From NCBI GenBank assembly GCA_025453395.1, contig JALOQK010000002.1, positions 241,102-305,101 of the forward strand: a stretch of 64,000 nucleotides of DNA, written 5' to 3'. Positions 11,086 to 63,319 of the stretch are shown here, piece by piece. The notes under the pieces were generated by a model. It was given only the letters and a program-made list of their open reading frames with translations. It was not told the origin of the DNA and did not search any database. This DNA comes from Candidatus Omnitrophota bacterium (GTDB lineage: Bacteria; Omnitrophota; Gorgyraeia; Gygaellales; Profunditerraquicolaceae). Position numbers and translations under genes: made by a program. The first letter of the stretch is position 1. Every line of letters starts with the position of its first letter.

Positions 11086-11102
11086 AAAGATCTCCTGTTT
11101 AG

Positions 11103-13979: not shown

Positions 13980-13982
13980 GTA

Positions 13983-42454: not shown

Positions 42455-43171
42455 CTATTCTTCTATGTAAAGCATGCGGTTACAATTCTCGCAGGTAATA
42501 ATATGGTCGTACATCTTGATAAGATTAATCACCTGGGCAGGCATAAAAAGATTGCATCCCTGGCAGGAATTATTTTTTACCGCAACTATGCCAAGGCCGT
42601 TTCTATTGCTTAGTATTCTTTCGTACTCTGCGAAGATCTTTTTATCTACTTCAGGGATGACTTGGCTTCTTTGCGCCTCTAATTGGCTGATTTTCTCGTC
42701 TATTAACTTGATGCTGTCAGTTATTTTCTTTTTTTCTTCATTAACAGCCTTTTCTTCTTGAGCAAGCATCTGTTTTTCTTTATCCATATCCTGCTTGGCT
42801 TTATCTATCTGATCCATAGAAGAAAGGATTTTGTCTTCTATCAAAGACATATCCGCTTTTGCGTCTTGTATCTGTCCAAGCATAGTATTGTACTCTTTAT
42901 TGGTTTTTAAGCTGTAAAGCTGGCCCTGCAACTTTTTAACAGCCTCTTCTCTTGAACCTAGTTCAAGCTCAAAATCCTTTTTCGCTTTCTGTAGGTCAAG
43001 GTAAGCTTTTTCTAATTGCGCAAGAACTTGTTTCTTAAGGTCAAAGGCTTCATCAATTGCTTTAAGCTTGAGCGGTTGATTTTGTTTTTCGTTATTCAAA
43101 AGGTATATCTGCCGGTCTATATCCTGTAATCTTAAGAGAACCGCTATTTGCGCTTTTAAATCAGCTGGCAT
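42455..43171 (-). CDS. COG1579-type coiled-coil protein with a C-terminal C4 zinc ribbon
   Basis: Long coiled coil, then CQGCNLFMP...CENCNRMLY. I trimmed the ORF to ATG 43171 (MPADLK...) because the first 75 residues of ORF-track ORF 42455..43396 lie across two tRNA genes. Confidence 0.75.
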   Translation of the reverse strand: MPADLKAQIAVLLRLQDIDRQIYLLNNEKQNQPLKLKAIDEAFDLKKQVLAQLEKAYLDLQKAKKDFELELGSREEAVKKLQGQLYSLKTNKEYNTMLGQIQDAKADMSLIEDKILSSMDQIDKAKQDMDKEKQMLAQEEKAVNEEKKKITDSIKLIDEKISQLEAQRSQVIPEVDKKIFAEYERILSNRNGLGIVAVKNNSCQGCNLFMPAQVINLIKMYDHIITCENCNRMLYIEE

Positions 43172-43196
43172 AACCGCATCCTTTTCTTTATATATA

Positions 43197-43270
43197 TGGG
43201 CGCAATAGGACTTGAACCTATGACCTCTACAATGTGAATGTAGCGCTCTAACCAACTGAGCTATGCGCCC
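43197..43270 (-). tRNA. tRNA-Val (anticodon CAC)
   Basis: GGGCGCATAGCTCAGTTGGTTAGAGCGCTACATTCACATTGTAGAGGTCATAGGTTCAAGTCCTATTGCGCCCA folds as a cloverleaf with anticodon loop TTCACAT. CCA is not encoded. Confidence 0.9.
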
Positions 43271-43272
43271 GA

Positions 43273-43345
43273 TGGGCCCACAGGGATTTGAACCCCGGGC
43301 CAAGTGATTATGAGTCACCTGCTCTAACCACTGAGCTATGGGCCC
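43273..43345 (-). tRNA. tRNA with CAT anticodon, tRNA-Ile2 (lysidine)-like rather than elongator Met
   Basis: GGGCCCATAGCTCAGTGGTTAGAGCAGGTGACTCATAATCACTTGGCCCGGGGTTCAAATCCCTGTGGGCCCA is nearly identical in D-arm and anticodon arm (GGyGA-CUCAUAA-UCrCU) to the E. coli ileX tRNA. It lies 2 nt from tRNA-Val. Confidence 0.8.
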
Positions 43346-43418
43346 TAAAACAGGCAAAAAAGTATAATTACAGAGAATAATAATTATATCATACAAAGGA
43401 AAAGCTTCAAAGGGATTT

Positions 43419-48333: not shown

Positions 48334-49011
48334 CTATTCTAATTCAAAGGAAATAATAACATTAAAGGATAATTGCGGATAATCCAATTCTTTGGGGAAA
48401 GATGGAAAAGGCCCTGCCTCCCGCACGCTTTTGATAGCAATCTGGCCAAGATAAGCGCTTGCTGATGATTTTTCGCTGATCACATGCACATCATTTATTT
48501 GCCCATTGTTCGCCACAATAAAAGAAGTATAAACTTCTCCTGTTTCTGTGCGCACATAATTGTGATAGGCCGCGCGGCGTATTTTCTCCCTGACTAACTG
48601 GTAATAGTTTATATAAGAGGGGTTTTTTATTTTGTCCTGATCAAGCGGCGGCAAAGAAACCTTCATTTTGATACTGGATATTTCTGGCTTTATAAAGTTT
48701 GGCTTTATCATAGTGTCGGCTGCTTGCGGGATATCGCCAGCCTTAGAGCCATTGTTAAATTGTTTAAAGGCAGGCGCGGATTTAACGTTCATGCGTATTT
48801 TAGCATTAACATCATAAGGATCAACGCGTTTATCCAGCTGTTCCCTGGGAAGAGTTTTAGGTATGCCGGGGCTTTTTAGATAACGCAGTTCTACTTTTTG
48901 TTCTGCAGCAGCCTTAGAGAATAAATTCAGATGATACGAATTTAATAAGATTATCCCGTGAACAGCTGCGGATATGATGAATGTGGCAAAAAATACCTTT
49001 GGAGAGTTCAT
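48334..49011 (-). CDS. TonB C-terminal domain-like membrane-anchored protein
   Basis: N-terminal TM anchor. The C-terminal YTSFIVANNGQINDVHVISEKSSASAYLGQIAIKSVREAGPFPSFP matches the TonB-C fold pattern. It lacks a long Pro-rich spacer. Confidence 0.55.
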   Translation of the reverse strand: MNSPKVFFATFIISAAVHGIILLNSYHLNLFSKAAAEQKVELRYLKSPGIPKTLPREQLDKRVDPYDVNAKIRMNVKSAPAFKQFNNGSKAGDIPQAADTMIKPNFIKPEISSIKMKVSLPPLDQDKIKNPSYINYYQLVREKIRRAAYHNYVRTETGEVYTSFIVANNGQINDVHVISEKSSASAYLGQIAIKSVREAGPFPSFPKELDYPQLSFNVIISFELE

Positions 49012-49019
49012 TTATCTTT

Positions 49020-49520
49020 TTAAAACTCAAATCCCTTACGGGCTAAGCGGCCTTTATTAAAATAGTGCTTAACGCATTTGATGTAACTGACTAAGTCCGC
49101 TTTATTTATTATAGCCTGCGGAGCGTTCCTTCCGGTTAAAACCCATTCTGTATTATGGCGGGATGTTTTTATAATCCGCATCAAGTCTTCCTGTTTAATA
49201 AGGTTAAAATGCAAGGCGAGATTTATTTCATCCAGGATAATCAGGTCGTAGCTATTGTTTTCTAGAACTTCCCTTAGTCTCTTGAGGCCTTTGCGCGCGG
49301 ATAACTTATCTAATCTTCCAGGGGCACGCACAAAATCAGATCTTCCGCATTGTTCAACGGTTATCCCTGATAAAAAGGAAATGGCCTTTAATTCGCTTGT
49401 GGGATTTTTCTTAAGGAATTGAAGGATATATACCTTTAAACCGGCGCCGCTTGCGCGCAACGCTAACCCCAGGCTTGCGGTAGTTTTTCCTTTACCGCAT
49501 CCCGTATATACTTGGATCAT
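49020..49520 (-). CDS. cobO: Cob(I)yrinic acid a,c-diamide / corrinoid adenosyltransferase (CobO/BtuR/CobA family)
   Basis: P-loop TGCGKGKTTASLG and the acidic LILDEINLA motif. Confidence 0.85.
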   Translation of the reverse strand: MIQVYTGCGKGKTTASLGLALRASGAGLKVYILQFLKKNPTSELKAISFLSGITVEQCGRSDFVRAPGRLDKLSARKGLKRLREVLENNSYDLIILDEINLALHFNLIKQEDLMRIIKTSRHNTEWVLTGRNAPQAIINKADLVSYIKCVKHYFNKGRLARKGFEF

Positions 49521-49540
49521 ATTAGAAAAATAAAACAGGC

Positions 49541-51610
49541 TTATTTATAGGAAATAGTTACCGTGAATCTTTCTTCCGTTTTATTAATTCCCGTCGGGAA
49601 TACCGGAAATGGAATGGCATCTTTGATAACCTTTAAAGCATAAGGCACAAGGCTGTCCTCGCTTGAGCTTATAATATTAGGCTCAGCTAAAAGCTGGCCG
49701 TTAGAAGAAAGAAGAAAATTCACCACCACATTTCCATTCACTCCGACAGGAGAATTGCGCTTGGCAAATCCCTGAATGCGGTTAATCAGATTTTGATAAT
49801 ACGTCGCCTTCTCTGCTTCCTGGGCTGCCTGATTATCTAAAATCTGCTTTTTCTGCTCTTTAAGCTTAGCCTGTTTATCGCGTTCTTGCTGGCCGCTCAG
49901 TTCTTGAGTTTTTTTATCGCGCGCCTCTTGCATCTGCTTTAGGCGGGCTTCTTTTTTAGCCTGCAGCTGTTTAATTTTCAACGCCCGCGGGTCCTCTTTT
50001 ATATCCGCAGGTATTTTCTCAATAACAATGTTCCCGTTTTTCATGCTCGCTACCGCGCCTTGCTTGGGAGCAATTTCTTTGAATTCAGTAAACGATGATT
50101 CTCCGCTCATTATATGAGGGGTAAGAAGTATGATCAGATCCGAAGTAGTTGAATCATCCGATATTCTTCGGAAGAAATGCCCGATAAGCGGTATGTCGCC
50201 AAATAAAGGTATCTTTTTAACCGTTTTATCGCGGGAATCCTTGCGCAATCCCCCAATGACGATAGTTACGCCATCGCGGATCATAACTGTTGTTTCGGAT
50301 TCCGAAGTGCTGACAATGGGAACTTGGGTGATTGTCCCTTCAGAGGTGATATCTGTCCTAATTGCAGAGCTTATCTCCGGGCGTATTTTCATGGTAATAA
50401 AACCATCCCTGCTTATTGTGGGAGTTACAAAAAGTTTGATCCCCACATCCACAAAATTTACTGTTTGCGATATTGAGCTTGGGCTTCCAGAGGACTGCAC
50501 AGTCGTAGAAGTAATATAAGCGTCTTTTGTGCCAACCAGTATCTTTGCCTCTTGATTATTTAAAGCCATGATCCTGGGGCTGGAAAGGATCTTAACATCT
50601 CCGATGGTGCGGATAATATCCATGGTGGCTTTGTAGTCGCCTGGCTTAGTTACTGTAGATGCCGTGCCTACCAGAAGCGCCCCTGTAGTATTTATTGGAA
50701 GCGCTGCTTTAATGTCCATGTATTTCTGAAACCAGTAATCCCAATCAAAACCTACTTCCAATTTATCTGAAGGCTTTACTTCTATTATTTGAGCATCAAT
50801 CAATACCTGCTGGGTCTTTTCATCGAACGCGGCTATTACCTTGGCTATCTCATCAAGCTTTTGCACGGTATCGGTAACGGCAATCTTATTGGTCCTTTCG
50901 TCAATCTTCACCACGCCAAGCCCTTTTGTAAGGGAATCCTGTAATTTAGAGCTTATTTTTTCAGCCTGGGCGTAATTAAGGTTAAAAATGCGGGTTTCTA
51001 TCGGCACATCGGCATTCTTGACGAACTCCGCCATTTCTATTAATTTAATCGGGGTATCTATAATAACCAAGGTATTAGAAACATCATCCGCTATTACCTT
51101 GCCGATATTAGTTTTCATCTGGGTAAGCGCCCGTGAGATGTCAGCGGCCTTGGCATATTTAAGTTGTATGATTTTGGCTCTTTTCTTATCTTGAAAACGC
51201 TCACCGTATAACAACTCATAATCTCTTTGACTCATGACATTGACCATGTCTCCCCTTCTATCATAAGCCAAGTCATTTGAAACAAGCACAAACTCAAACG
51301 CCTCCCAGGCATCAACGTCTTTAATAAAAAGCGTGACTTTGCCGGATACGTTCTTGCCCACGATAACATTCAACCCTACTTTTCCAGAAAGCATTTTTAT
51401 CACATCAACTATATCCATGCCCTTAATATCCAGGGTGATTTTTCTGGGGTCAGCTGATGAACTGACAATCGGCGCGGTGCTGGCTTCCGGAACAGTTGTT
51501 TGAGAGAAAGCGTCCTGTTTTAATAAAATCAAAACACCTGTTAAAGTAAATAGTAAAAATGCCAGCAATTTTTTCATTGCTTTTATGTGTCTCCTTTCTA
51601 AGAGAATCAT
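49541..51610 (-). CDS. gspD: Secretin (GspD/PilQ) with a C-terminal TonB-C-like domain
   Basis: Signal peptide, N0/N1-type domains, and the secretin core (VPIVSTSESETTVMIRDGVTIVIGGL...IPLFGDIPLIGHFF). After a K/E/Q-rich linker, the last ~90 aa (NGNVVVNFLLSSNGQLLAEPNIISSSEDSLVPYALKVIKDAIPFPVFP) resemble a TonB C-terminal domain. Confidence 0.85.
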   Translation of the reverse strand: MILLERRHIKAMKKLLAFLLFTLTGVLILLKQDAFSQTTVPEASTAPIVSSSADPRKITLDIKGMDIVDVIKMLSGKVGLNVIVGKNVSGKVTLFIKDVDAWEAFEFVLVSNDLAYDRRGDMVNVMSQRDYELLYGERFQDKKRAKIIQLKYAKAADISRALTQMKTNIGKVIADDVSNTLVIIDTPIKLIEMAEFVKNADVPIETRIFNLNYAQAEKISSKLQDSLTKGLGVVKIDERTNKIAVTDTVQKLDEIAKVIAAFDEKTQQVLIDAQIIEVKPSDKLEVGFDWDYWFQKYMDIKAALPINTTGALLVGTASTVTKPGDYKATMDIIRTIGDVKILSSPRIMALNNQEAKILVGTKDAYITSTTVQSSGSPSSISQTVNFVDVGIKLFVTPTISRDGFITMKIRPEISSAIRTDITSEGTITQVPIVSTSESETTVMIRDGVTIVIGGLRKDSRDKTVKKIPLFGDIPLIGHFFRRISDDSTTSDLIILLTPHIMSGESSFTEFKEIAPKQGAVASMKNGNIVIEKIPADIKEDPRALKIKQLQAKKEARLKQMQEARDKKTQELSGQQERDKQAKLKEQKKQILDNQAAQEAEKATYYQNLINRIQGFAKRNSPVGVNGNVVVNFLLSSNGQLLAEPNIISSSEDSLVPYALKVIKDAIPFPVFPTGINKTEERFTVTISYK

Positions 51611-52179
51611 ATGGATAACTCCATTTTCTGCCCCTTATAATCAATGATAATTTTACCGTCGTGGATTTCTTCTACAGTCATGTCGCCAAAAGATTGGCCC
51701 ACAGTCAAATAATAAGTGCGTTGATTTTTTTTGTCTTCAATAACCGCTTGCGGAGTAGGTTCAAGCATGATACCTACAAGGTTTATATTTTTGAAAAGTT
51801 CTCCCGCTATATCAGCGGCAACCGGGTCAATTGTCCCGGATCCTGCGCTCTGGGAAATAAAAAGCTTCTTACTTTTAAAAATCTGTTCAAAACCTTCATA
51901 GTTTGATAAAACATCTTTACTTTCCTCTAAAAGCTTGCTTGTGAAAGCGGCGTCTGATTCCGGCAGCTTAATTTTCTTAAGCCCATAATAGGGATAAAGC
52001 AAGGCAGAAATAAAATAAATAGCTTCCAGAATGAAAATAATGGAAATTATATTCTTTAACCGTTCAAAATTAATAAAATCATTGAGAATATAAGAGATGG
52101 GGAATTTTAATGGGTTTTTTTTCCCTGTAGGATTGACTGCGGGTGAAGAGCTATTTGCCGCTTTTGAAAGTTCTGCCAT
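51607..52179 (-). CDS. GspC/PilP-like secretin-associated inner-membrane protein
   Basis: N-terminal TM helix. A C-terminal beta-rich segment (TYYLTVGQSFGDMTVEEIHDGKIIIDYKGQKMEL) fits the PilP/GspC HR-domain pattern. Its position is immediately upstream of the secretin gene. Confidence 0.45.
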   Translation of the reverse strand: MAELSKAANSSSPAVNPTGKKNPLKFPISYILNDFINFERLKNIISIIFILEAIYFISALLYPYYGLKKIKLPESDAAFTSKLLEESKDVLSNYEGFEQIFKSKKLFISQSAGSGTIDPVAADIAGELFKNINLVGIMLEPTPQAVIEDKKNQRTYYLTVGQSFGDMTVEEIHDGKIIIDYKGQKMELSI

Positions 52180-52236
52180 ATTTATAATTATTTAATACCT
52201 CTTAACCCTGTTTGTCAAGTTTATTTTGTAATGCCT

Positions 52237-52764
52237 TTACTCTACAGAAATCTGGCTTAATGAAAAATTAGCTTCTAATTCACCGGAATTAACTTTTTGG
52301 ATAATCTGCAGTCTTCTAACCTCAAAATATAAAAGGGAGTTTTCTAACCCGTAAATAAACTTAGTTTGAGACACAATATCGCCTGAAGTCTTTAAATCCA
52401 CAATATTTTCCTTATAGATAGTTGAACGCTTGGTCTGGCGCGGACGAAGGTCAATGATCTTTACCCCTGATGCTTTAGCGTCTCTTTCTATGGTAGTAAG
52501 CGCCAGAAGCATGCTGTCTGTGGCCTGGCCGCGGGTATTTAACCCGGGCAACAATTTAGAATATTTCTTTTGGATCCCGGATTTTTTATCCACCAAGTGC
52601 ATATATTTAAGGATTCTGCTGCGAGAAACGCTTATTTCCTTGCTATAAGTATCATTTGTCTTAAGCAAAGGGGCAACTATGTAATTAAACGCCATAGCCA
52701 AAATAATCACAAGCGCCGCTATAATAAAAAACGATTTCTCTCTCTGGGATATGATTTTTATCAT
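52237..52764 (-). CDS. GspM/PilO-like bitopic assembly protein
   Basis: N-terminal TM helix plus a periplasmic domain. It sits between the GspL-like and GspC-like genes. Confidence 0.45.
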   Translation of the reverse strand: MIKIISQREKSFFIIAALVIILAMAFNYIVAPLLKTNDTYSKEISVSRSRILKYMHLVDKKSGIQKKYSKLLPGLNTRGQATDSMLLALTTIERDAKASGVKIIDLRPRQTKRSTIYKENIVDLKTSGDIVSQTKFIYGLENSLLYFEVRRLQIIQKVNSGELEANFSLSQISVE

Positions 52765-52767
52765 ATT

Positions 52768-54222
52768 CTAATTTAACTGGCAGATTATTTCAAATTCAAC
52801 TATCTCGGTACCTTTACTTTTCTTTTTTGTGACATAACGCAGCTTTGCCGGGATCTTTTTAAAGCCGCTAGCGTTTTGTAGTTTTGACATGAAAGAAAAA
52901 ACATTTTCCAGGGAATCAGTTTGCGCGCGCATAAGTATCTGTTTCTCTGCTTCATAATCAAAAGAAAGAAGCGATATATTGTCCGGGGCTACTTTATATA
53001 ACTCATACATCTTATCAAAAAGAGCCACTCTTTGCGAATGCCTTTTTTCAAAGAAATCAAACCTCTTCTCTATTTCTTCCAGCTGCTTGGCCTCTGATGA
53101 CATATATACAAGTTCGTCTTTTAATTTCCCCAAATAAAGCTTTTTATTATCAATGTGTTTTAATACTCCTACTACCAATAAAGCGCAGGCGCCTATAAAG
53201 ATAGCCAGTAACTTCATGCGCTCACGCCAAAGATAGGCTTTTCTTAAGCGTTCCTTATAATCTTCAGCCAAAAGGTTTAGCGAATCATTAAGTTTAACTA
53301 AACCAAATCCAATAAGGTTAGTATAAAGATCTTTATCCTGCTCTATCTTTTCCGCCACGTTCTTAATCACCGGCCAATTCATGTCTATGGGGCAGACTTC
53401 TACCGGCACTTCTACTTCTTCTGAAGTGGCTTCTATGGCTGAAGCGGGAATTTCCTCTTTGGATATAAAGATTATCTTCTTGGGTTTTTGCTGGGATATT
53501 TCCTTTAAATACGCGTCGCGGGTCTTGCGCACCTCTTCGGCTAAAACATTTTCCCATTGTGGAGAGTTTCGGTTAACCTTAAAATAGCGGCTATAGAGAA
53601 GTTTTTGGTTGTTTACTACCGCCACCTCCACTGCCTTGGGGTTAAAATTCACCAAAAGAAGAGTGTCTTTGTCTTGCGGCTTTACATAGGAATAAAAATT
53701 GCTTAAACCATAGGAGCCTAAAACAATATTAAACCTGCGCGGCCTTAACTCTTCCACTATTTTAAGATGTTTCTCTATGACGTTGCGCAAGACAATGATC
53801 AGGTTAACATGAGAATAGCCGTCTTTATCAACATTGACGATTTCATAACCGCTTATTAATTCTTCCGGAGGATACGGCAGGTATCTGGAAACCTGAAAAG
53901 ACAATATTCTTTCGATTTCCGGGACAAAACGCGTGGGGATCTTTAAATAGCGGCAGGTTACAAGATTTCTGGGCACAGAAACTATGATGTAATTATTTTT
54001 ATACCCAAGCTGCCGGAAGATATCGTGGATCTTAGTAGCAGATCCGGCCTGTTCAGCGGCAAGAGAATAGGTTTTTAAATCAACGAAATATTTGCTTCTT
54101 TTATCAACAGCGCAATGAGCAATACTTAAGATTTCATCTGTTATCTGGAAGATAAAAGCAGAATCTTTAGTTTTATATTTAATGCTCGCTGATTTCGGGA
54201 TAAGGTTATCTCTATTGTTCAT
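52768..54222 (-). CDS. GspL-like protein: a cytoplasmic actin-like (PilM-type) domain fused to TM and PilN-like periplasmic parts
   Basis: At 484 aa it is about the length of PilM plus PilN. There is a single internal TM helix (LKLLAIFIGACALLVVGVL) about 140 aa from the C-terminus. It sits between gspK and gspM-like. Confidence 0.55.
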   Translation of the reverse strand: MNNRDNLIPKSASIKYKTKDSAFIFQITDEILSIAHCAVDKRSKYFVDLKTYSLAAEQAGSATKIHDIFRQLGYKNNYIIVSVPRNLVTCRYLKIPTRFVPEIERILSFQVSRYLPYPPEELISGYEIVNVDKDGYSHVNLIIVLRNVIEKHLKIVEELRPRRFNIVLGSYGLSNFYSYVKPQDKDTLLLVNFNPKAVEVAVVNNQKLLYSRYFKVNRNSPQWENVLAEEVRKTRDAYLKEISQQKPKKIIFISKEEIPASAIEATSEEVEVPVEVCPIDMNWPVIKNVAEKIEQDKDLYTNLIGFGLVKLNDSLNLLAEDYKERLRKAYLWRERMKLLAIFIGACALLVVGVLKHIDNKKLYLGKLKDELVYMSSEAKQLEEIEKRFDFFEKRHSQRVALFDKMYELYKVAPDNISLLSFDYEAEKQILMRAQTDSLENVFSFMSKLQNASGFKKIPAKLRYVTKKKSKGTEIVEFEIICQLN

Positions 54223-55231
54223 ACCAGGATATAATTTTACTTTCTTCTATTTTATCATGATTTCTGTAATAAATACAATTAATTTTTCGTTTTAAGTTTT
54301 TATTTTCTAAAACTGCTTCAGAAGAAATCTTGAAATAGTCTGAACTGGCGCTCATTTTATTGCCTAGCGCAGCAAGCACTGTTTGATATTTGATATCTAG
54401 ACTAAGAAATGTCGGCGAAAGAACTTTTGTATTTTCAAAGTGCCCGATTTCGTTACGCTTGCTAAGTATGGCATTGGTTATTTCTCCTGTTGCCTCATCA
54501 GATAAGCTTGCGGCTTTAACACAACTTAGGACTAGTATTCTTAAAACATCTTCCCCAACAGTATTAATATTAATTTTATCTCCTGAACAAACAAAATAAT
54601 CCTGCAGAATAGCGTAAGCCTTAAAACCTTCTTCCAGATAGGTTTCCTGATTTATATTTTTAAAATAGTATTGCAGAGGATAAACTAACTCCTCTATTAC
54701 TGTTAAAGATGCTTTTTTAAACCCAGCGTATTTATCCGCTTTTAAATCTTCATCACTAGCCTGATTATCCTTCTTTCTTTGTATGCAGATATCCTCAACT
54801 AAGGCATCAGGATCAGTAATCCCGTCAATTTTCTCCGTAACGATTGATTTTATTATTTCCCTGTCAACGGTGTTTATATTGAAACGCCTTTCTTCATCTT
54901 CTATGTGCACGCTAAAAGAATACGGATCATCATCGCGTATTCTTATATTACTGAAAATATCCGAATTGGTCTTGGCATCTATCCCCGTAGACCAGGTTTC
55001 ATCAAGGCCGTCGTAGTTTTTCGCATCGTAATCTTTTAACCACTTTACCGCCTTATTTACTCCTGCCTGCGCCATTAAGTATGCCTTCAGCCTTTGATAA
55101 TAGGTCTGTGAAGCCTTTAGATTAAAATAAGCTCTTCTGCCTAAAGTCAAAGAAAAAACAACCAAGATAAAAAGTAGCCAAAGGCTGAAGATAAGTATAG
55201 AACCGGTATTTCTTTTATTTTTCATTAACAT
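54212..55231 (-). CDS. GspK-like minor pseudopilin
   Basis: N-terminal hydrophobic segment ILIFSLWLLFILVVF without Glu5, and about 330 aa as for GspK. Confidence 0.6.
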   Translation of the reverse strand: MLMKNKRNTGSILIFSLWLLFILVVFSLTLGRRAYFNLKASQTYYQRLKAYLMAQAGVNKAVKWLKDYDAKNYDGLDETWSTGIDAKTNSDIFSNIRIRDDDPYSFSVHIEDEERRFNINTVDREIIKSIVTEKIDGITDPDALVEDICIQRKKDNQASDEDLKADKYAGFKKASLTVIEELVYPLQYYFKNINQETYLEEGFKAYAILQDYFVCSGDKININTVGEDVLRILVLSCVKAASLSDEATGEITNAILSKRNEIGHFENTKVLSPTFLSLDIKYQTVLAALGNKMSASSDYFKISSEAVLENKNLKRKINCIYYRNHDKIEESKIISWYEQ

Positions 55232-55856
55232 CGCAAAATAAAGGGATGACTTTTGTGAATGCTACAGTATCTGTATTTTTAGCTTTATCCAAGGAGATAA
55301 AAATCTTGACCCTTAGTGCCAAAGGTAACCTGGCTTTTTGTTGCAGGGAAATATCCTGGGGTGCTTCCACCGGCCAAACCTCTTGCCACACATAAGCCGA
55401 GCTTGCTTTAGGGTCGTCACTCTTCCTGGCATACTCAAAAGAAAGATCCTTAACCTGGCTTGAGAAACTACTTTGCGCATTTTCTTTAGTTAAGATCTGC
55501 CGGGTTAAAGCGTTATTATTAAAAGCATACTCTATTTGAGCAGCTTCCCGGTATAAGGTTGAATTCTTATAGGCGTTTGTTATTGTGTAAAAATCAAGCT
55601 TATTGCTTGAGCCGATAAAACCAGAATCCCCTGTTTTATAAATAAAAGCATTTCTTAAGTCTCTCTGTATCTGGCTAAAAACTAACCTTTGGGTATTGTA
55701 TATTTCTGAAGAGTCTTCTATTTTCTGATAATTACGGATTGCTGAATAGAATAATGAATATAGGCCCACCGCTAAGATCGCAAAAATAGCACTTGCCAAT
55801 AAAACTTCTACTAAGGTAAAAGCCTTTTTATTATTTAACATAAGAAAAGAAATCAA
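55215..55856 (-). CDS. GspJ-like minor pseudopilin (prepilin-type N-terminus)
   Basis: N-terminal KKAFTLVEVLLASAIFAIL. The alternative start ATG at 55841 gives MLNNKKAFTLVEV. Confidence 0.6.
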   Translation of the reverse strand: MISFLMLNNKKAFTLVEVLLASAIFAILAVGLYSLFYSAIRNYQKIEDSSEIYNTQRLVFSQIQRDLRNAFIYKTGDSGFIGSSNKLDFYTITNAYKNSTLYREAAQIEYAFNNNALTRQILTKENAQSSFSSQVKDLSFEYARKSDDPKASSAYVWQEVWPVEAPQDISLQQKARLPLALRVKIFISLDKAKNTDTVAFTKVIPLFCDVNEK

Positions 55857-56199
55857 GGTTTAAACTATTAGTTGATTTTCTAGTTTGCCAGTTTACAGTT
55901 AAGAAAAGCTCATTTAAATCTAAGGCCTGCGGGTCTTTTTCTAAAACATACTGCCACTTAAAAACCCGGTTCTGCATATCTTCCTGGCCTTCTGCCGTAG
56001 TTACTGAAGGGTTGCGGGAAGCCTCCCAAAATTTTTCTTCAGCTAAGTAACAGGCAAGAAGTATATCCTGGGATTTACTGGTAGCCGCGATAATCACAGA
56101 AAATCCTTTGTAAATAAAAACTACCGCTACCGAGATTATCGCGATAGTAATCAATACTTCCAGAAGCGTAAAGGCTTTATTCTTCCTTGGAAATCTCAC
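55831..56199 (-). CDS. GspI-like minor pseudopilin
   Basis: N-terminal KNKAFTLLEVLITIAIISVAVVF. Confidence 0.6.
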   Translation of the reverse strand: MRFPRKNKAFTLLEVLITIAIISVAVVFIYKGFSVIIAATSKSQDILLACYLAEEKFWEASRNPSVTTAEGQEDMQNRVFKWQYVLEKDPQALDLNELFLTVNWQTRKSTNSLNLDFFSYVK

Positions 56200-56653
56200 T
56201 TTTTAATCCTTTTATTTCAAGGTTAAGAGTCTCTCCTGCGGGATTCTTAAAAGAAATCTTTATTTCCGCGGCGCTTCCGTCAGGATAAAAATATGCCGCG
56301 CTTTCTTCATCGGGCTGGAAAGATACTTCAACAAATCGAGGGACTTTTTGCAGTCCAGAGAGCCGTCCGGCAATAGGATTGGATTCCTGGGTTTGGGGAT
56401 CAATATAAAGCGGCACGAAATAGCGCTCTTGGGCGTTATATTCCAAACAATATACCTTTTGCTCCGAGCCGGATAAATCCCGCAAATACATGCTCAGATA
56501 ATAAATATCCCTGACAAAACTTTCTAATTCAATTTTCTGCTGTATGTGTTTTATTTTCGGAAATGACAGGGCGATAAAAACGCCCAATACAACCGTGATT
56601 ATGATTAATTCTATGAACGTGAAAGCCCTATCTTTAATTGTTGCAGATGTCAT
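56177..56653 (-). CDS. GspH-like minor pseudopilin
   Basis: DRAFTFIELIIITVVLGVF. The start is set at ATG 56653 (MTSATIKDRAF...); the ORF-track start 56710 would overlap gspG by 77 nt. Confidence 0.55.
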   Translation of the reverse strand: MTSATIKDRAFTFIELIIITVVLGVFIALSFPKIKHIQQKIELESFVRDIYYLSMYLRDLSGSEQKVYCLEYNAQERYFVPLYIDPQTQESNPIAGRLSGLQKVPRFVEVSFQPDEESAAYFYPDGSAAEIKISFKNPAGETLNLEIKGLKSEISKEE

Positions 56654-57026
56654 CTTCGGATTTATTTTCGTCGGGGCCTGGAGAGCAAAGCTTATAGTCT
56701 TTATTGTCATCGCTTAAAAGCTCATATTTGTAGGCCCTACCCCAGGGGTCTTTCAGGTCTCTGTCCTTTTTGATATAAGGGCCTTTCCATTGGGTGCTGG
56801 AGTCAGGATTTGTCAAAAGGTCATCCAACTTGCCGGGATAATGCCCCATATCTATTTCAAACATGTCCAAGGCAACCGGTATATTCGCCTGGACCGCGGA
56901 CCTGGCCACAGTAATGCGCGCTTCTTCAGAGCGGCCCACAAGCCTGGGCATAACCATCGCGGCCAAAACCCCTATAATGATAACTACCAACATAAGCTCA
57001 ATTAAAGTAAAGGCTGTTTTTTTCAC
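56634..57026 (-). CDS. gspG: Major pseudopilin GspG
   Basis: MKKTAFTLIELMLVVIIIGVLAAMV plus GspG-specific ALDMFEIDMGHYPGKLDDL...WKGPYIKK...DPWGRAYKYE motifs. Confidence 0.85.
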   Translation of the reverse strand: MKKTAFTLIELMLVVIIIGVLAAMVMPRLVGRSEEARITVARSAVQANIPVALDMFEIDMGHYPGKLDDLLTNPDSSTQWKGPYIKKDRDLKDPWGRAYKYELLSDDNKDYKLCSPGPDENKSEDDICNN

Positions 57027-57049
57027 TTTTTCCTCCTGGAATATGGCAA

Positions 57050-58258
57050 TTACCGCACAATTAAATTAATCTGGAATATCGGCAACAACATGGAAATTAC
57101 AATAAAACCTACGACCAGGCCCATAAAAAGAATTACCGCCGGCTCTACAAGTTTGCTTATTGTCTTTAAGAAAGAATCCACCTCTTTTTCATAGTCATCC
57201 GAAATACGCACCAACGCCTTTTCCAAGGTCCCGCTTTCTTCGCCCACGGTAATAACATTCATAATAAGAGGCGGAAATAATTTTGAATCCTTGATACTAT
57301 TGGAAAGGCTTTTGCCTTCGCTTATATCGTCCTTAACCTTTAAGATCTCCGCTTTAATGATTTTATTATCCAATAGTGAAGCTGAGATATCAAGCGCCGG
57401 CACGATAGTGACTCCGCTTGAAATCAAAAGCGATAACGTGCGCATCATCCTGCTTATCTCGCTTTTAAGGATGATGTCGCCAAAAATAAAAACTTTAAGT
57501 TTTAATTTATCGCAATGCATCCTTCCTTCATCGCTTTGATAGTATCGATATAGCACAAATCCAACCAGGGCAATAAAACCTAAAGCCATCCACCAATATT
57601 GCCTGAGCATCTGGGATGAATCTATGAGGATTCTGGTGGGAACCGGCAAGGCTTGCCCCATATCATCAAACATCACCACTAACCTGGGGATAACAAATCC
57701 CATTAAAACGCCTATGGTCAATACCCCCACGCAAAACACAAACGCCGGGTAAATCAGGGCCCCTTTTATGGAACTTTTAAATTCTTCTTCTTTCTCCAGG
57801 AATGTCGCTAATCGGCTTAAAGTTTTATCCAATGTTCCGCCAACTTCCCCGGAATGCACCATGGAAACATATATGGCCGGGAATAATTCTTTATGCTTAG
57901 ACAGGGCCTCGGAAAGCGGGATCCCGTCTTTTATTTTGCTTGCGATATCCCTTAAGACAATCTTAAAATGCTGGTTCGGGCTCTGATCGCCTATGATGCT
58001 TATCCCGTTAATAATGTTTACCCCGGAACCAACCAGGCTGGATAATTGCGTGGTAAATTGCACGATATCTTTTTTTGAAATACGGGACACCTTCAGGAAA
58101 TTATCTTTAATGAAGAACGTTTCTTCGGGGATGATGCTTATAGGGTAGAGGCCTTTTTGGGCAAGCTTGTCTATCGCGTCTTGCTGGGATTGGGCGTCGA
58201 CAATTCCGCTTGCGGCTTTCCCGGGGCCAGATTTGGCGCTATACTTATAACGTGGCAT
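57050..58258 (-). CDS. gspF: Type II secretion / type IV pilus platform protein GspF/PilC
   Basis: Two T2SSF repeats and three TM segments. Confidence 0.9.
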   Translation of the reverse strand: MPRYKYSAKSGPGKAASGIVDAQSQQDAIDKLAQKGLYPISIIPEETFFIKDNFLKVSRISKKDIVQFTTQLSSLVGSGVNIINGISIIGDQSPNQHFKIVLRDIASKIKDGIPLSEALSKHKELFPAIYVSMVHSGEVGGTLDKTLSRLATFLEKEEEFKSSIKGALIYPAFVFCVGVLTIGVLMGFVIPRLVVMFDDMGQALPVPTRILIDSSQMLRQYWWMALGFIALVGFVLYRYYQSDEGRMHCDKLKLKVFIFGDIILKSEISRMMRTLSLLISSGVTIVPALDISASLLDNKIIKAEILKVKDDISEGKSLSNSIKDSKLFPPLIMNVITVGEESGTLEKALVRISDDYEKEVDSFLKTISKLVEPAVILFMGLVVGFIVISMLLPIFQINLIVR

Positions 58259-58259
58259 G

Positions 58260-59972
58260 TTATTCGTTTAACCCTTCTTGCTGGGTCACGCGGATAATTT
58301 CACTGTAAGTAGTGATCCCCATTAAAACCTTCTTTAGGCCGTCATCACGCAAGGTGCGCATGCCTTTTTCAACAGCTTTTTGTTTGATCTGCTGGCTGGA
58401 AGCTCGGTTAATGATCATTTCGCGGATAACCTCATCCACAACTAATATTTCATGAATACCGGTCCTGCCGCGATAACCGGTAAAACGGCACTGGTCACAG
58501 CCCTTTCCTTCATATACGGTAATATTATCTGCGTCGGGCATACTGCTTTTTATTTGTTTTATGATCTGCTCGCTTGTCTTGGCCTGAAATTTGCAATTAG
58601 GGCAAATAAGCCTGACCAATCTTTGCGCGATCAGGCATTCTAATGAAGAAGAAACCAAAAACGGCTCAATGCCCATATCCAAGAGGCGGGTTACTGCCCC
58701 GGCCGCGTCGTTAGTATGAAGCGTTGAAAAAACCAAATGCCCGGTTAACGCCGCGCGGATAGCAGTTTCGGCGGTTTCATAATCTCGGACTTCTCCCACC
58801 ATCATAATGTCCGGGTCGTGCCTTAACATATGCCTTAGGCCCAAAGCAAAATCAAGGCCAATGCGGGAATTTACCTGGATCTGATTTATCCCTTTTAGCT
58901 GATATTCAATCGGATCTTCCATGGTAATGATTTTTACCGCTTGAGAATTGATCTTGGCCAATGAAGCATAAAGGGTAGTGGATTTGCCAGAACCGGTAGG
59001 CCCGTTCAAAAAGATAACCCCGTGCGGTTTTTTGATCATCTGCTCAATTATGCGCAAGTTATCCGGCAATAAGCCTATCTTCTCAAGTTCCAAGAAGAAT
59101 TGAGAACTTAATATCCTAATGTGCACCGCTTCCCCAAAAGCTGTAGGGATCGTAGAAACTCTTAGGTCTAATTCCTGATTATCAATTTTGATCTTAATCC
59201 TTCCATCCTGCGGGATACGATGCTCGGCGATATTCATATGCCCCATGATCTTAATACGCGAAACAATGGCAGGATGAAAATACTTAATCGTCTCAGGGAT
59301 GTTGATATTATACAAGATACCGTCTATTCTAAAGCGGGTGCGCAATTCATCCTGAAACGGCTCAAGATGGATATCGGTGGCGCGGTCTTTGATTGCTTCG
59401 GATAAGATCTGATTAACGAATTTTATAATAGAGGCGTCTTCGGCTAAGACTTCCAGGTCTTCGGTTTTATCCAAATGCCCGGGTATCTCATGGATGGGCT
59501 GATCCTTGGAGATCATTTTTTCTAATGTTTCCGCCCCTACCCCGTAATATTTACGGATAGCATCTTGAATTTCCGCTTCGCTTGCCAAAACACCTTTAAC
59601 ATCAAAGCCTAAGATAAGGTTTAAATCATCAACTGTGCGCACGTCTAAAGGATCGGTCATGGCTATGGTCATGACGTTATCCTTAAAATCCAGAGGGATT
59701 ATTTTATAGTGGCTGGCGAATTTAGCGGATACCTTGCGGATTACCGAAGGGTCAATTTTTTTGTCTTTTAATTTTAAATACGGAATGTTTAACTGATGGG
59801 ATAGAAGCTGGAAAACTTTTTCTTCTGTGGCAAAGCCCAGCTTAATTAAAGTGGCGCAAATAAATTCTCCGGTTTTTTCGCGCTCCTTAAGCCCCACCTG
59901 AAGCTGCTCGGAAGTGATTATTCCCTGCTCAATGAGAAGCTGCCCGATAAGAATACTATTTTTAGTAGACAA
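58260..59972 (-). CDS. gspE: Type II secretion ATPase GspE/PilB
   Basis: N-terminal T2SSE_N domain, Walker A GPTGSGKST, Asp/His boxes, and the tetracysteine CPNC...CDQC. The start decodes as TTG, preceded by a GGGAGG Shine-Dalgarno sequence. Confidence 0.95.
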   Translation of the reverse strand: MSTKNSILIGQLLIEQGIITSEQLQVGLKEREKTGEFICATLIKLGFATEEKVFQLLSHQLNIPYLKLKDKKIDPSVIRKVSAKFASHYKIIPLDFKDNVMTIAMTDPLDVRTVDDLNLILGFDVKGVLASEAEIQDAIRKYYGVGAETLEKMISKDQPIHEIPGHLDKTEDLEVLAEDASIIKFVNQILSEAIKDRATDIHLEPFQDELRTRFRIDGILYNINIPETIKYFHPAIVSRIKIMGHMNIAEHRIPQDGRIKIKIDNQELDLRVSTIPTAFGEAVHIRILSSQFFLELEKIGLLPDNLRIIEQMIKKPHGVIFLNGPTGSGKSTTLYASLAKINSQAVKIITMEDPIEYQLKGINQIQVNSRIGLDFALGLRHMLRHDPDIMMVGEVRDYETAETAIRAALTGHLVFSTLHTNDAAGAVTRLLDMGIEPFLVSSSLECLIAQRLVRLICPNCKFQAKTSEQIIKQIKSSMPDADNITVYEGKGCDQCRFTGYRGRTGIHEILVVDEVIREMIINRASSQQIKQKAVEKGMRTLRDDGLKKVLMGITTYSEIIRVTQQEGLNE

Positions 59973-60038: not shown

Positions 60039-60674
60039 TTAATTAAAACCAAATCTGCCCACCAAAGGCACAAACACGCAGGCGCAAGAAGGCCTACATT
60101 CGATTTTCAAGTTTTTTATAACCACATTGATTGTCTGTATTGCCTTATCTCCCAAAGGTATGACCATACGCCCGCCTTGTTTCAACTGGTCCAAGAGCGG
60201 CTGCGGTATTTCGGGGCTGGCTGCGGATACGATTATTTTATCAAAACATCCCTTTTCTTTATATCCCATTGTCCCGTCGCCAGTGATCACGGTTACATTT
60301 GAATACCCTAACTTGTTTAACAGGTCTTTGGCATTAGTTGCTATGCTTTCTATGCGCTCAATAGTAAAAACCTCTTTGGCCAATTGCGCCAGTATCGCGC
60401 TTTGGTATCCGGAACCGGTGCCTATCTCAAGCACGCAATCATCCTTGTTGATCTCTAAAAGCTCAACCATCAACGCTGTAATATAAGGTTGAGAAATAGT
60501 TTGTGCCTGCCCTATTTGCACGGGATGGTCAGCATACGCCTGCTCAATTCTGGATGCAGGGACAAAAAGATGCCGTTCAATCTTCATAAACGCTTCTAAG
60601 ACACGGGCACATTTTATGCCCCTGGATACCAATTGGGACTGCACCATATCCTTGCGCAAAGACAGAAAATCCAT
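60039..60674 (-). CDS. pcm: Protein-L-isoaspartate O-methyltransferase
   Basis: Motifs QTISQPYITALMVELL, VLEIGTGSGYQSAILA and a post-III region. Confidence 0.9.
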   Translation of the reverse strand: MDFLSLRKDMVQSQLVSRGIKCARVLEAFMKIERHLFVPASRIEQAYADHPVQIGQAQTISQPYITALMVELLEINKDDCVLEIGTGSGYQSAILAQLAKEVFTIERIESIATNAKDLLNKLGYSNVTVITGDGTMGYKEKGCFDKIIVSAASPEIPQPLLDQLKQGGRMVIPLGDKAIQTINVVIKNLKIECRPSCACVFVPLVGRFGFN

Positions 60675-61350: not shown

Positions 61351-62204
61351 TGTTTATAGAATTTGCGAAACATATACCACTGTTCAGGGTACTGTTTTAT
61401 ATATCGCTCAAATATTTCCTTGTATTCAAAGATAGTCCGGATTAAATCATTTTTCTTATCGCCAGAATTCTTGCATTCAATCGGCCGGTTAAAATGCAAT
61501 GTGAAAGTATCGTCATTGTTGCGCACCATAAAAATAGGGACAATCAAGGCGCCGGTCTTAAGGCCAAAGGCTGCCGGGCCTTCAGGAAATAATGTTTTCT
61601 TGCCAAAAAAATCTATTAACTGTCCTCTTTCGCCAAAATCCCTGTCGCCGACTAAAGCAAGGATGCCTTTTTCTTCCAAAACACGCAGGCATTGCCTGAC
61701 CGCCTTCCCAAAAGGTATAACTGTCAAACCTTTACTTTGCCTTTGGCGGTTAAAAAAATCATTAACTTTTTTATCCTGATGCACTAAAGCCACCGCAGAA
61801 AGTGCATGCCCCAGAACGCCCATTACCGCTCCGCCTAATTCCCAATTGCCCAAATGCGCGGTAACAATAATTACCCCTTTGCCGCTTGCCCGCGCCTGGT
61901 CGAAATATTGTTTATTTTGGAAGAAAACATTCTTATCTATAAATTTTTTATCCAGCTTATCGTATCTAAAAAAATCTACCAGGTATTTGGCGAAATTCCT
62001 GAAAATCGCCTTTCTTATCCCGGCTATTTCCTTATTTGTTTTTTGCGGGAAAATTATTTTAAGATTGCAGGTTACCGCTTTACGGTCTTCTTTATTAAAT
62101 AAACAGTGGATATCTGAAACAAATGCGGCGAATTTATACGCAAAATTTAACGGCAGGTTTAAAGCAATAGTCTTTCCTATTTGATATAACCAATAAGTGG
62201 CCAT
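61347..62204 (-). CDS. Lysophospholipid / lipid A late acyltransferase (LpxL/HtrB family)
   Basis: HLGNWE motif (TAHLGNWELGG) of the HtrB/MsbB family, with a membrane-anchored N-terminus. Confidence 0.8.
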   Translation of the reverse strand: MATYWLYQIGKTIALNLPLNFAYKFAAFVSDIHCLFNKEDRKAVTCNLKIIFPQKTNKEIAGIRKAIFRNFAKYLVDFFRYDKLDKKFIDKNVFFQNKQYFDQARASGKGVIIVTAHLGNWELGGAVMGVLGHALSAVALVHQDKKVNDFFNRQRQSKGLTVIPFGKAVRQCLRVLEEKGILALVGDRDFGERGQLIDFFGKKTLFPEGPAAFGLKTGALIVPIFMVRNNDDTFTLHFNRPIECKNSGDKKNDLIRTIFEYKEIFERYIKQYPEQWYMFRKFYKQ

Positions 62205-63319
62205 CAGCTTAAGTCAAGAAGAAGCCTTGCGGTATCAAGGCTTGAATTAGGCCTGCTAATAGCATTTGCAGCCTGGCGCATGGCATCTATTTTTAAAGGT
62301 TTATTTATGAAATCTTTGATGTAGAAATTTATATTCTTGAAATCATCAAGCCTTATCGCTGCTTTAGAATGCACAAGATAGGCGGAATTGTTGGCTTCTT
62401 GCCCGGGTATAGGTTTAATAATAATCATCGGCAGGGACTTGGATAGCGCCTCTGATGTGGTGATCCCCCCGGGCTTGGTAATAATAATATCCGAAACCGT
62501 CATAAACTCGTGGATATTGTTTGCATACCCAAAAACAAGCATCTTGTGTTTTGATTTTGCGGACTTTTTCCTTAAACTTTTATAAAGTTTCGTATTGCTT
62601 CCGGCTATAACAATACTTTGCACAGGGAGATCAAGCTTTTCCAACGAAGAAATTATGGTTTTTATGGGCCCCAGTCCTTGCCCTCCACCCATGATCAATA
62701 TCGTAAAGACTTTGGGGTTTAATCCTAAGTCACGGCATATTTTATCTTTATCAAGCGAATAGCTGAATTTCGGGTCGCAAGGTATGCCAAAGGGTTTGAT
62801 CTTCTGAATAGGCACTCCTCTTTGCGAAAGCTTATCTCCCACTTCGCTTGATGGGACAACATAATAATTTACCTGATTATAGATCCAATAGAGATGCGGC
62901 ACATAATCCGTTAATACCGCCACTAGCGGCATGTTAGAGCGGTAGATTTGCTTAAAATCCGCCACCATCCCGCAGGGGAAAGCCTGGGAGCAAGCTACCA
63001 CATCAGGCTGGAATTGATCGAAAAGGCGCTTGAATTTTATAGAATTTTGCTTATGCAGCAGCTCTTTTATGCTGCCTAAACTTTTTACCACCTTCGGGTT
63101 ATCATAAAGATAATCCCATATCCGAGGGATCCTTTTGATGACCGTCATGTACAAACGGTTAACTACTTTCTCTGATATGGGATTTGTATAGTTAAAAGCA
63201 TTTAAATTCATCACCTGAGTTTCTGGTGAAAGGGTTTTTATGGCTTTTTCTATAGCGATGGTAGCGCTATGATGCCCGGATATTTCTGAAATGTACATTA
63301 AAATTATACGCTTGCCCAT
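62204..63319 (-). CDS. GT28-family glycosyltransferase (MGDG-synthase / MurG-like)
   Basis: The N-terminal GHHSATIAIEKAI resembles the MGDG_synth GNGH motif. The central ILIMGGGQGLGP is a MurG/GT28 C-terminal-domain glycine loop. Confidence 0.6.
   Translation of the reverse strand: MGKRIILMYISEISGHHSATIAIEKAIKTLSPETQVMNLNAFNYTNPISEKVVNRLYMTVIKRIPRIWDYLYDNPKVVKSLGSIKELLHKQNSIKFKRLFDQFQPDVVACSQAFPCGMVADFKQIYRSNMPLVAVLTDYVPHLYWIYNQVNYYVVPSSEVGDKLSQRGVPIQKIKPFGIPCDPKFSYSLDKDKICRDLGLNPKVFTILIMGGGQGLGPIKTIISSLEKLDLPVQSIVIAGSNTKLYKSLRKKSAKSKHKMLVFGYANNIHEFMTVSDIIITKPGGITTSEALSKSLPMIIIKPIPGQEANNSAYLVHSKAAIRLDDFKNINFYIKDFINKPLKIDAMRQAANAISRPNSSLDTARLLLDLS

Follow-up and report, generated by a model that had tools for sequence, protein, structure and literature searches.

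A conserved TonB/TolA-type domain at the C-terminus of an Omnitrophota secretin

We analysed 64,000 nucleotides of a Candidatus Omnitrophota bacterium assembly (GenBank GCA_025453395.1, contig JALOQK010000002.1, positions 241,102 to 305,101). This whole stretch is called the window below, and all coordinates are those of the window. It encodes a secretin, which serves a type II secretion-like machine (type IV filament class) as its outer-membrane channel. Past its beta-barrel core, this secretin continues into a folded domain of the TonB/TolA type. The fusion of secretin and domain is ancient, inherited and maintained by selection, and the domain would, in our preferred reading, serve for docking or anchoring and not for energy transduction. 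An earlier note, made from the sequence of the window without database searches, had described three open reading frames (ORFs) here, for the secretin, for CobO and for a stand-alone 225-amino-acid (225-aa) protein with a TonB-like C-terminus; all three are present as described, on the minus strand.

Results

The window protein is a secretin with a non-secretin C-terminus

The secretin ORF (49541..51610, minus strand) occupies the GspD position of an operon with the gene order of a type II secretion system (T2SS), and encodes 689 aa from an ATG at 51610 that overlaps the upstream stop codon (ATGA). An alternative start at M12 (ATG at 51577), which gives a protein of 678 aa as in the NCBI annotation, may be the real one; the N-terminus is signal-peptide-like with either start.

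Membership of the bacterial secretin superfamily, defined by PF00263 together with Secretin_N, is clear. The Pfam Secretin model PF00263 matched residues 336-501 (154 bits, E 4e-45), and Secretin_N matched two stretches with 79 bits, above its cutoff. The beta-barrel core spans approximately residues 268-505 (50096..50809, minus strand), as indicated by PF00263 and by AlphaFold2 strands at residues 268-501. It is preceded by periplasmic N-domains (50825..51430, minus strand), identified from Pfam and from AlphaFold2 secondary structure as an N0/STN-like domain at about residues 61-125 and two Secretin_N domains at about residues 146-262; the models type_II_gspD_N0 (23.4 bits) and STN (15.8 bits) both scored below cutoff. 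Among whole-protein models in NCBIfam, PilQ ranked highest, followed by GspD, with the window secretin missing the thresholds of both the PilQ model TIGR02515 (238.6 bits, cutoff 284.35) and the GspD equivalog TIGR02517 (230.3 bits, cutoff 351.35).

Solved PilQ and GspD structures matched the window secretin at E 1e-34 to 1e-24, and the matches to all of these chains stop at about residue 500-507, with nothing homologous beyond. This bears out the remark of the earlier note that the architecture was not recognised from characterised secretins. Pfam gave no match to an AMIN domain in the protein, and after the barrel there is no sequence match to an S-domain; a hairpin, a linker and a TonB-type domain are found in its place. 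A full-length AlphaFold2 model of the monomer (predicted local distance difference test, pLDDT, 70) contains the N-domains, the barrel, a hairpin at residues 519-532, long helices and a confident C-terminal domain.

The C-terminal domain has a TonB/TolA-type fold

The last 94 or so residues of the secretin (596-689; 49544..49825, minus strand) form a TonB/TolA-type fold, as the earlier note had proposed, and this assignment is supported by Pfam, by a family profile, by AlphaFold2, by Foldseek and by hhalign. Pfam TonB_C (PF03544) matched residues 623-689 with 30.5 bits (E 5e-7), above its gathering cutoff of 24.6; the related models PF13103 (TonB_2; 17.4 bits, cutoff 22) and NCBIfam tonB_Cterm (TIGR01352; 21.4 bits, cutoff 27.1) stayed below theirs. 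A profile built from 65 C-terminal domains of the family retrieved the C-terminal domain of Helicobacter pylori TonB (5LW8, 6SLY) at E 1.6e-6, and HasB weakly. The domain was modelled by AlphaFold2 at pLDDT 93.8 as alpha-beta-beta-alpha-beta (helix 2-29, strands 37-46 and 56-60, helix 63-75 and strand 90-99, as numbered in the model). In a Foldseek search against the PDB, the well-scoring matches were all C-terminal domains of TonB, FusB, TolA or HasB, with probability 1.00 for those ranked 1-8 and a best template modelling (TM) score of 0.65 at a root mean square deviation of 2.1 Å. Among the matches were complexes of TonB with BtuB (2GSK) and of TolA with a TolB peptide (6S3W) and with g3p (2X9A, 1TOL).

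The domain is, judged from its sequence, a paralogue of the C-terminal domain of Omnitrophota TonB proteins, the family to which the 225-aa protein belongs. A single comparison of the secretin domain with that of the 225-aa protein gave 29% identity (E 2e-10), and hhalign aligned the secretin domain with the Omnitrophota TonB family at 99.5% probability (E 6e-23). A YYQ..KI helix and an ASPFPxFP motif are common to both families, and the domain profile scored about 70 bits on Omnitrophota TonBs, as against about 31 bits on TonBs of Proteobacteria and Helicobacter with solved structures. In the simplest history, the TonB C-terminal domain of the phylum would have been duplicated and fused to the secretin. 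The secretin gene would have gained its copy early in the history of the phylum, and that copy now sits after the barrel, where classical GspD secretins have a pilotin-binding S-domain.

An exhaustive search of 1.84 billion representative sequences with the domain profile (E<=1e-10) matched 654 proteins, and we sorted the best 150 of these with purpose-built hidden Markov models (HMMs), the resulting categories being heuristic. Within the best 150, 45 are secretins of the window family (28-54% identity to the window protein, over the full length where the sequence is complete), 34 are short fragments, at least 28 are TonBs of the 225-aa family, and 29 have the domain repeated in tandem, in 2-5 copies. 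Non-secretins with 2-5 such copies from the same TonB-type subfamily are represented by P0242, P0248, P0383 and P0249. P0242 contains five copies in 560 aa, and P0383 combines the domain with TPR repeats; for P0249 (2378 aa, on a 6.4-Mb contig), the exhaustive search gave 13 matched stretches, which were not reproduced by our own HMM check. A secretin of the same family, P0241 (851 aa), showed three domain stretches in the exhaustive search and two TonB_C stretches by Pfam.

The fusion is ancient and maintained by selection

We investigated the distribution of the fusion at two depths. In all 120 nearest homologues (51-70% identity, 603-696 aa), phmmer located the domain at the very end of the protein, on its C-terminal side. 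We additionally scanned one genome per GTDB species with a full-length secretin alignment as query, which yielded 80 loci, nearly all of them titled Omnitrophota. A few come from bins labelled Planctomycetales/Planctomycetia, Patescibacteria, Deltaproteobacteria or Cyanobacteriota; these nest among Omnitrophota in the tree, and we suspect mislabelling.

The domain is present on the secretin ORF at 66 of the 80 species loci, where the proteins are 36-67% identical to that of the window. At three further loci one in-frame stop codon interrupts the gene shortly before the domain or within it, and the domain continues beyond in the same frame (L030, TAA at about 7647; L047, TAA at about 3262; L075, TAG at about 7352); these stops could be errors of sequencing, or could mark split genes or a domain that has recently become a pseudogene. 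Three secretins are cut by a contig end, two retain the post-core motif described below and have lost the domain (L028, L048), and six end right after the barrel. Five of these six form one basal clade in a rough neighbour-joining tree, and one member of that clade, L059, has the same operon type as the window; the remaining loci without the domain are dispersed over the tree, a pattern that points to secondary loss in these lineages. An apparent further variant, a 1229-aa "secretin with an extra C-terminal region" at L025 (3354-7041), was rejected, as a scaffold gap of 100 N joins the secretin to the next GspE gene.

The closest species pairs gave ratios of nonsynonymous to synonymous substitution (dN/dS) of 0.07-0.23 for the domain and 0.04-0.12 for the core, with dS partly saturated. 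Neither GC content nor nucleotide skews show a break at the junction near 50000. The earlier note had raised the possibility of an assembly or frameshift error at this point, and a related alternative is a decaying relic fusion without function. The three loci with an in-frame stop and the eight without the domain could be read in favour of such an origin. Against it stand the identical architecture in the nearest homologues and the species loci, from independent assemblies; a protein 100% identical to the window secretin (P0001), encoded as a single 678-aa ORF in a Candidatus Omnitrophica metagenome-assembled genome at NCBI; dN/dS values well below 1; a confident fold model; and smooth composition across the junction. 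Recurrence in independent assemblies and purifying selection thus indicate that the fusion is not an assembly artefact, and we regard an artefact or a relic as scarcely credible.

The region between barrel and domain is variable

Residues 511-595 form a spacer of 85 aa between the core and the C-terminal domain; the earlier note had estimated about 90 aa each for linker and domain. The spacer contains a conserved post-core segment of about 25 aa, KEIAPKQGAVASMKNGNIVIEKIPA (50006..50080, minus strand), which is predicted to form a beta-hairpin (AlphaFold2 strands 519-524 and 527-532, at low pLDDT) and which has the consensus SEIKPKDGAVAKMxKGNIVTEKI in the 120 nearest homologues. It is followed by a K/E/Q-rich linker (residues 536-595; 49826..50005, minus strand), predicted as a long alpha-helix running into the first helix of the domain. 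The residues K, E, Q, R, D and A make up 77% of positions 536-600, and AlphaFold2 places helices at 541-569 and 573-618.

Across the family, the C-terminal domain alone is the constant part after the core. A loose pattern for the post-core motif, which missed a few evident variants, matched 32 of the 66 domain-bearing species loci, and the hairpin segment is confined to some subclades; another subclade has a linker with the motif EYTSLT.DKDI instead. The 85-aa linker of the window is the longest among the 120 nearest homologues (range 21-85 aa, median 30), and the long K/E/Q linker is peculiar to the window lineage. This median makes it unlikely that reaching across the periplasm was the ancestral function of the domain. 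In the species set, linkers measure about 20 aa in L068 and L070 and more than 100 aa in L074. Those of L074, L080 and L082 are rich in Lys and Pro, with KLVPEKLVP-type repeats in L080 and L082 that are reminiscent of the proline-rich spacer of TonB.

Two candidate ligands for the domain within the secretin itself were considered and rejected. A role of the post-core hairpin as a universal ligand in cis, linking subunits into a daisy-chain ring, is not supported, because the motif is limited to some subclades and others have different or near-absent linkers. A TonB-box-like motif conserved at the mature N-terminus was likewise discarded, as that region is variable in the family alignment.

The downstream TonB belongs to a cobalamin module

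The 225-aa protein (48334..49011, minus strand) is membrane-anchored and TonB-like, as the earlier note had described it. TonB_2 (PF13103; 23.9 bits, cutoff 22) and TIGR01352 (31.4 bits, cutoff 27.1) both matched above threshold; an N-terminal membrane helix bears the SxxxH motif as SAAVH (within about 48940-48996), and the C-terminal TonB domain covers approximately residues 130-225 (48337-48624). The family is conserved in Omnitrophota, with full-length homologues at 45-53% identity and SxxxH present in 119 of 120 members. The gene that separates it from the secretin encodes a CobO/BtuR corrinoid adenosyltransferase (49020..49520, minus strand; 166 aa; Pfam CobA_CobO_BtuR, 188 bits), which belongs to a cobalamin module and not to the secretion system.

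In relatives (L086, L087 and L088), the 225-aa family closes clusters that comprise a TonB-dependent receptor, BtuF/C/D-like transporters and the cobalamin genes CobO, CobU/T/S/C and CbiC/D. In L086 and L088 the TonB gene comes immediately after the receptor gene, which encodes Plug and barrel domains; in L087 the receptor is part of the cluster. Where TonB does not adjoin the receptor in these clusters, it follows the ABC transporter genes that go with it. The cobO-tonB pair of the window is thus a remnant of that module, and the 225-aa protein is the genuine TonB of the cell, serving a BtuB-type cobalamin receptor. Unlike these relatives, the window has no TonB-dependent receptor between cobO and tonB. 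Elsewhere, CobO precedes BtuF-like and FecCD genes (L003), and a gene of the 225-aa family follows groES-groEL, with no receptor (L085).

Gene order suggests how the two systems came to be neighbours. L088 has the order MGDG-synthase, acyltransferase, GT2, PCMT, small membrane protein, CobO, DUF6580, receptor and TonB, and the window has MGDG-synthase (62204-63319), acyltransferase, GT2, PCMT (60039-60674), the secretion operon, CobO and TonB. The secretion operon is therefore embedded in an otherwise conserved MGDG-synthase-acyltransferase-GT2-PCMT-CobO-TonB block. At 84 related secretin loci, no gene of the 225-aa family was found within approximately 6 kb, apart from two split C-terminal domains. 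The functional pairing implied by the earlier note consequently does not hold, and we rejected the downstream TonB as a conserved partner of the secretin: with no TonB gene near these secretins and the TonB family placed in receptor and cobalamin clusters, the adjacency in the window is accidental, the product of a rearrangement.

We additionally identified a Wood-Ljungdahl corrinoid iron-sulfur protein cluster in the window (9392-15326, minus strand), including CdhD (13983-15326), the RACo activator (12132-13979) and neighbouring genes. This cluster indicates corrinoid-dependent acetyl-CoA metabolism, and the presence of CdhD and RACo makes a need for cobalamin plausible.

The secretin closes a T2SS-order operon

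Upstream of the secretin, the rest of the operon, which is complete in T2SS order (51607..59972, minus strand; Pfam and NCBIfam), encodes GspE with an MshEN domain (58260-59972), GspF (57050-58258), GspG (56634-57026), three pseudopilins with N-methyl motifs (55215-56710), a GspK-like protein (54212-55231), a PilM/PilN fusion in the GspL position (52768-54222), a GspM/PilO-like protein (52237-52764) and a GspC-like protein (51607-52179). T2SSE, T2SSF, T2SSG and the three N_methyl pseudopilins scored above cutoff; the matches to the GspK, GspM and GspC models and to PilM/PilN are weak. No retraction ATPase was identified among the annotated genes of the operon. MshEN is a known module for binding cyclic di-GMP (c-di-GMP), and the machine may be regulated by this messenger through GspE.

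Diverged homologues in L001-L004 and L059 are preceded by this set of genes too, and the genes downstream of the secretin differ in every annotated relative locus. Relatives often have, just upstream of the secretin, a GspC/GspB-like protein and an ExeA/MshM-like AAA_22 ATPase of about 272 aa, in which no wall-binding domain was detected; the window has no AAA_22 gene. Neither ExbB nor ExbD was found in the 64-kb window or in the 14-kb neighbourhoods of relatives that were analysed, among them four annotated ones around related secretins. An unannotated 247-aa protein downstream of the secretin in L004, considered as a hidden relative of TonB, proved to be a repeat protein unrelated to TonB. 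Omnitrophota clusters of this kind have been classed as type IVa pili and linked to attachment (PMC10066038), in a study with no mention of TonB or secretin domains.

Other features of the window

Three further observations concern genes outside these systems. A 167-aa protein (16616-17119, minus strand) unites a bactofilin domain with a C-terminal HTH_17 DNA-binding domain, an unusual pairing. Two large ORFs, of 937 aa (27240-30053, minus strand) and 1074 aa (23873-27097, plus strand), have no Pfam match at E<=0.001; the former has a signal-peptide-like N-terminus and ends in YYRRKF, resembling an outer-membrane beta-barrel protein. Finally, genes for tRNA-Val and tRNA-Met (43197-43345) lie inside the 5' part of the mechanically called ORF 42455-43396 (minus strand), indicating that the real gene, for a CT398-like protein with a coiled coil and a zinc ribbon, starts downstream of them.

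Discussion

A proposed docking module beside the barrel

Secretins form the outer-membrane gates of type II and type III secretion, of type IV pili and of filamentous phage export. Systems differ in how these channels are targeted, anchored and joined to the remaining envelope, and the difference mostly resides in accessory modules: an S-domain and the pilotin that binds it, AMIN domains, ExeAB or TsaP, for example. We moderately favour the reading that the C-terminal domain of the Omnitrophota secretin is a passive periplasmic docking or anchoring module beside the barrel, and not an energy transducer. In the secretin multimer, approximately 12-15 copies of the domain would encircle the barrel from outside, on its periplasmic side and just under the outer membrane; a C-terminus in this location, periplasmic and outside the barrel, would be expected from solved GspD structures. 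Through beta-strand addition, each copy would capture a short segment of a partner in extended conformation, as TonB and TolA C-terminal domains do, and as the partners are bound in the complexes 2GSK, 6S3W, 2X9A and 1TOL. The domain would in this way tie the secretin to a further component of the envelope, located near the outer membrane, and its role would resemble that of the S-domain/pilotin pair or of the AMIN and LysM anchors of other secretins. Candidate partners include a TonB-box-like strand in some protein or lipoprotein of the outer membrane, an adjacent subunit and possibly peptidoglycan. The short linkers in most relatives imply that the partner must be near the outer membrane. 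We found no inner-membrane anchor with SxxxH on the secretin, in which a signal-peptide-like segment is followed by the secretin N-domains; the lack of such an anchor, together with the lack of a link to ExbB/ExbD, argues for a passive domain.

Several points weigh against this proposal. The proposed binding mode is carried over from homologues alone, and the periplasmic position of the C-terminus is presumed from the solved GspD structures. Linkers vary from about 20 to more than 100 aa and range from helical K/E/Q segments through Lys/Pro repeats to the subclade-specific hairpin, so that, unlike that of the S-domain, the geometry of the domain relative to the barrel is not fixed. Around eight species-level secretins from the same type of operon (five in the basal clade and three scattered) lack the domain, indicating that it is dispensable in some lineages. 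The full-length model, moreover, is a monomer of modest confidence.

Alternative roles for the domain

The earlier note had suggested a link to an energy-transducing system. The domain would then pair with a membrane-anchored TonB, or with an ExbB/ExbD-TonB motor, and the proton-motive force would open or regulate the gate. A genuine TonB encoded two genes downstream in the window, with a domain paralogous to that of the secretin, could be counted for such a pairing, as could the capacity of TonB C-terminal domains to dimerise in crystals (1IHR) and the predicted helix of approximately 75 residues in the window linker, which could span much of the periplasm. However, the adjacency is conserved at 0 of the 84 related loci, genes of the TonB family are located among those for TonB-dependent receptors and cobalamin functions, most linkers of the family are too short to reach toward the inner membrane, and annotated neighbourhoods of the operons contain no genes for ExbB or ExbD. 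Gating of known T2SS secretins is, furthermore, driven by the pseudopilus and the GspE ATPase, both of which are encoded here. Energy coupling therefore appears very improbable. Binding to peptidoglycan, which would fix the secretin to the cell wall in the manner of the AMIN domains of PilQ or the peptidoglycan-binding domain of ExeA, we consider unlikely. Wall-binding accessory modules are common on or near secretins, the AAA_22 proteins of relatives are without a detected wall-binding domain, and a wall tether could tolerate linkers of variable length; the TonB C-terminus is also reported to have affinity for peptidoglycan (Kaserer and colleagues, 2008). Domains of the TonB/TolA type are nevertheless best established as binders of peptides and proteins, Pfam and NCBIfam detected no known wall-binding feature in the sequence, and linkers of 20-30 aa would place the domain immediately beneath the outer membrane, with the wall layer possibly below it.

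The domain might alternatively have kept its ancestral specificity and bind the TonB boxes of BtuB-like receptors, either co-localising uptake with secretion or competing with TonB. It is a close paralogue of the TonB C-terminal domain of the phylum, in which TonB-dependent receptors exist, and TonB boxes are found just below the outer membrane, where the secretin domain would also lie. The secretin domain is, on the other hand, faster-evolving and much less conserved than that of TonB (five invariant positions, as against a TonB family consensus that is mostly at least 80% conserved), which suggests a partner different from that of TonB. Secretin operons and receptors are not linked in the gene neighbourhoods analysed, and blocking uptake would bring no obvious gain; we thus view retained TonB-box binding as decidedly unlikely. 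A broader version, which we rate as highly unlikely, would turn the secretin, through its ring of TonB-type domains, into a hub for docking that catches the TonB-box-like strands of secretion substrates, of a surface or outer-membrane partner in host attachment, or of a TonB/ExbBD motor. If this were so, and if the captured strand were that of the motor, the channel would be coupled to the proton-motive force or to substrate recruitment, in a manner new for any secretin.

Comparison with known systems

The window secretin shares with the GspD/PulD systems that use an S-domain and a pilotin (PulD-PulS, GspD-AspS) a core of Secretin and Secretin_N domains, an N0-like domain and the operon order GspE-F-G-H-I-J-K-L-M-C-D. 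It also shares with them an additional C-terminal module after the barrel, one that probably contacts another protein close to the outer membrane. In those systems the pilotin binds the S-domain, a short helical peptide, whereas the folded domain of about 94 aa described here would itself do the binding; and unlike GspD, the window secretin has only two Secretin_N domains and falls below the cutoff of TIGR02517. PilQ structures are the best matches to its core, and the PilQ/MshL systems have in common with it PilM/PilN/PilO-like components, the MshEN domain of GspE and, in relatives, the MshM/ExeA-like AAA_22 ATPase. PilQ, in contrast, is anchored by N-terminal AMIN domains and ends at the barrel, whereas the window secretin lacks AMIN and extends past the barrel; its operon, unlike those of PilQ/MshL systems, contains GspG-type and GspK-type pseudopilins.

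The C-terminal domains of TonB, HasB and FusB and domain III of TolA share both fold and recognisable sequence homology with the secretin domain, and domain II of TolA is similar in style to the helical K/E/Q/A-rich spacer of the window. TonB/TolA-type proteins have an inner-membrane SxxxH helix and are coupled to ExbBD or TolQR, whereas the secretin domain sits on an outer-membrane channel with no link to a motor. TonB_C domains also occur in other envelope-spanning machines, for example in the Myxococcus gliding proteins GltG and GltJ, which provide a precedent for a TonB-type docking module in a trans-envelope complex that is not involved in import; they are, however, inner-membrane proteins that reach outward, and neither is known to be fused to a secretin. 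The secretin-assembly factors ExeA and ExeB (GspA and GspB) are likewise accessory elements, connecting the secretin with a second layer of the envelope as we propose here, but they are separate proteins with a classical peptidoglycan-binding domain, unlike the fused TonB-type domain.

Implications

The secretin-TonB_C architecture is conserved and apparently undescribed, as no description of it was found in the literature searched. Databases already contain such proteins: P0068, P0076, P0042, P0052 and P0100 are full-length secretins to which automated annotation at NCBI has given the names "energy transducer TonB", "TonB family protein" or "TonB C-terminal domain-containing protein". These names mislabel secretins and could inflate counts of TonB systems in Omnitrophota. 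A 2026 preprint describes "TonB C-terminal domain" matches beside genes of T2SS and type IV pili in Omnitrophota, and these matches may be the secretins studied here. The apparent TonB theme of two neighbouring genes in the window is a coincidence of gene order, a caution for inference from gene neighbourhoods.

Omnitrophota, which have not been cultivated, are for the most part ultra-small and are suspected of depending on hosts, and type IV filament machines have been proposed to serve in their attachment (PMC10066038). A phylum-level clade of secretins with a built-in TonB-type peptide-binding domain, in place of the S-domain and pilotin, AMIN, ExeAB or TsaP modules, would represent a new solution to the anchoring of these channels, and predicts a new partner protein.

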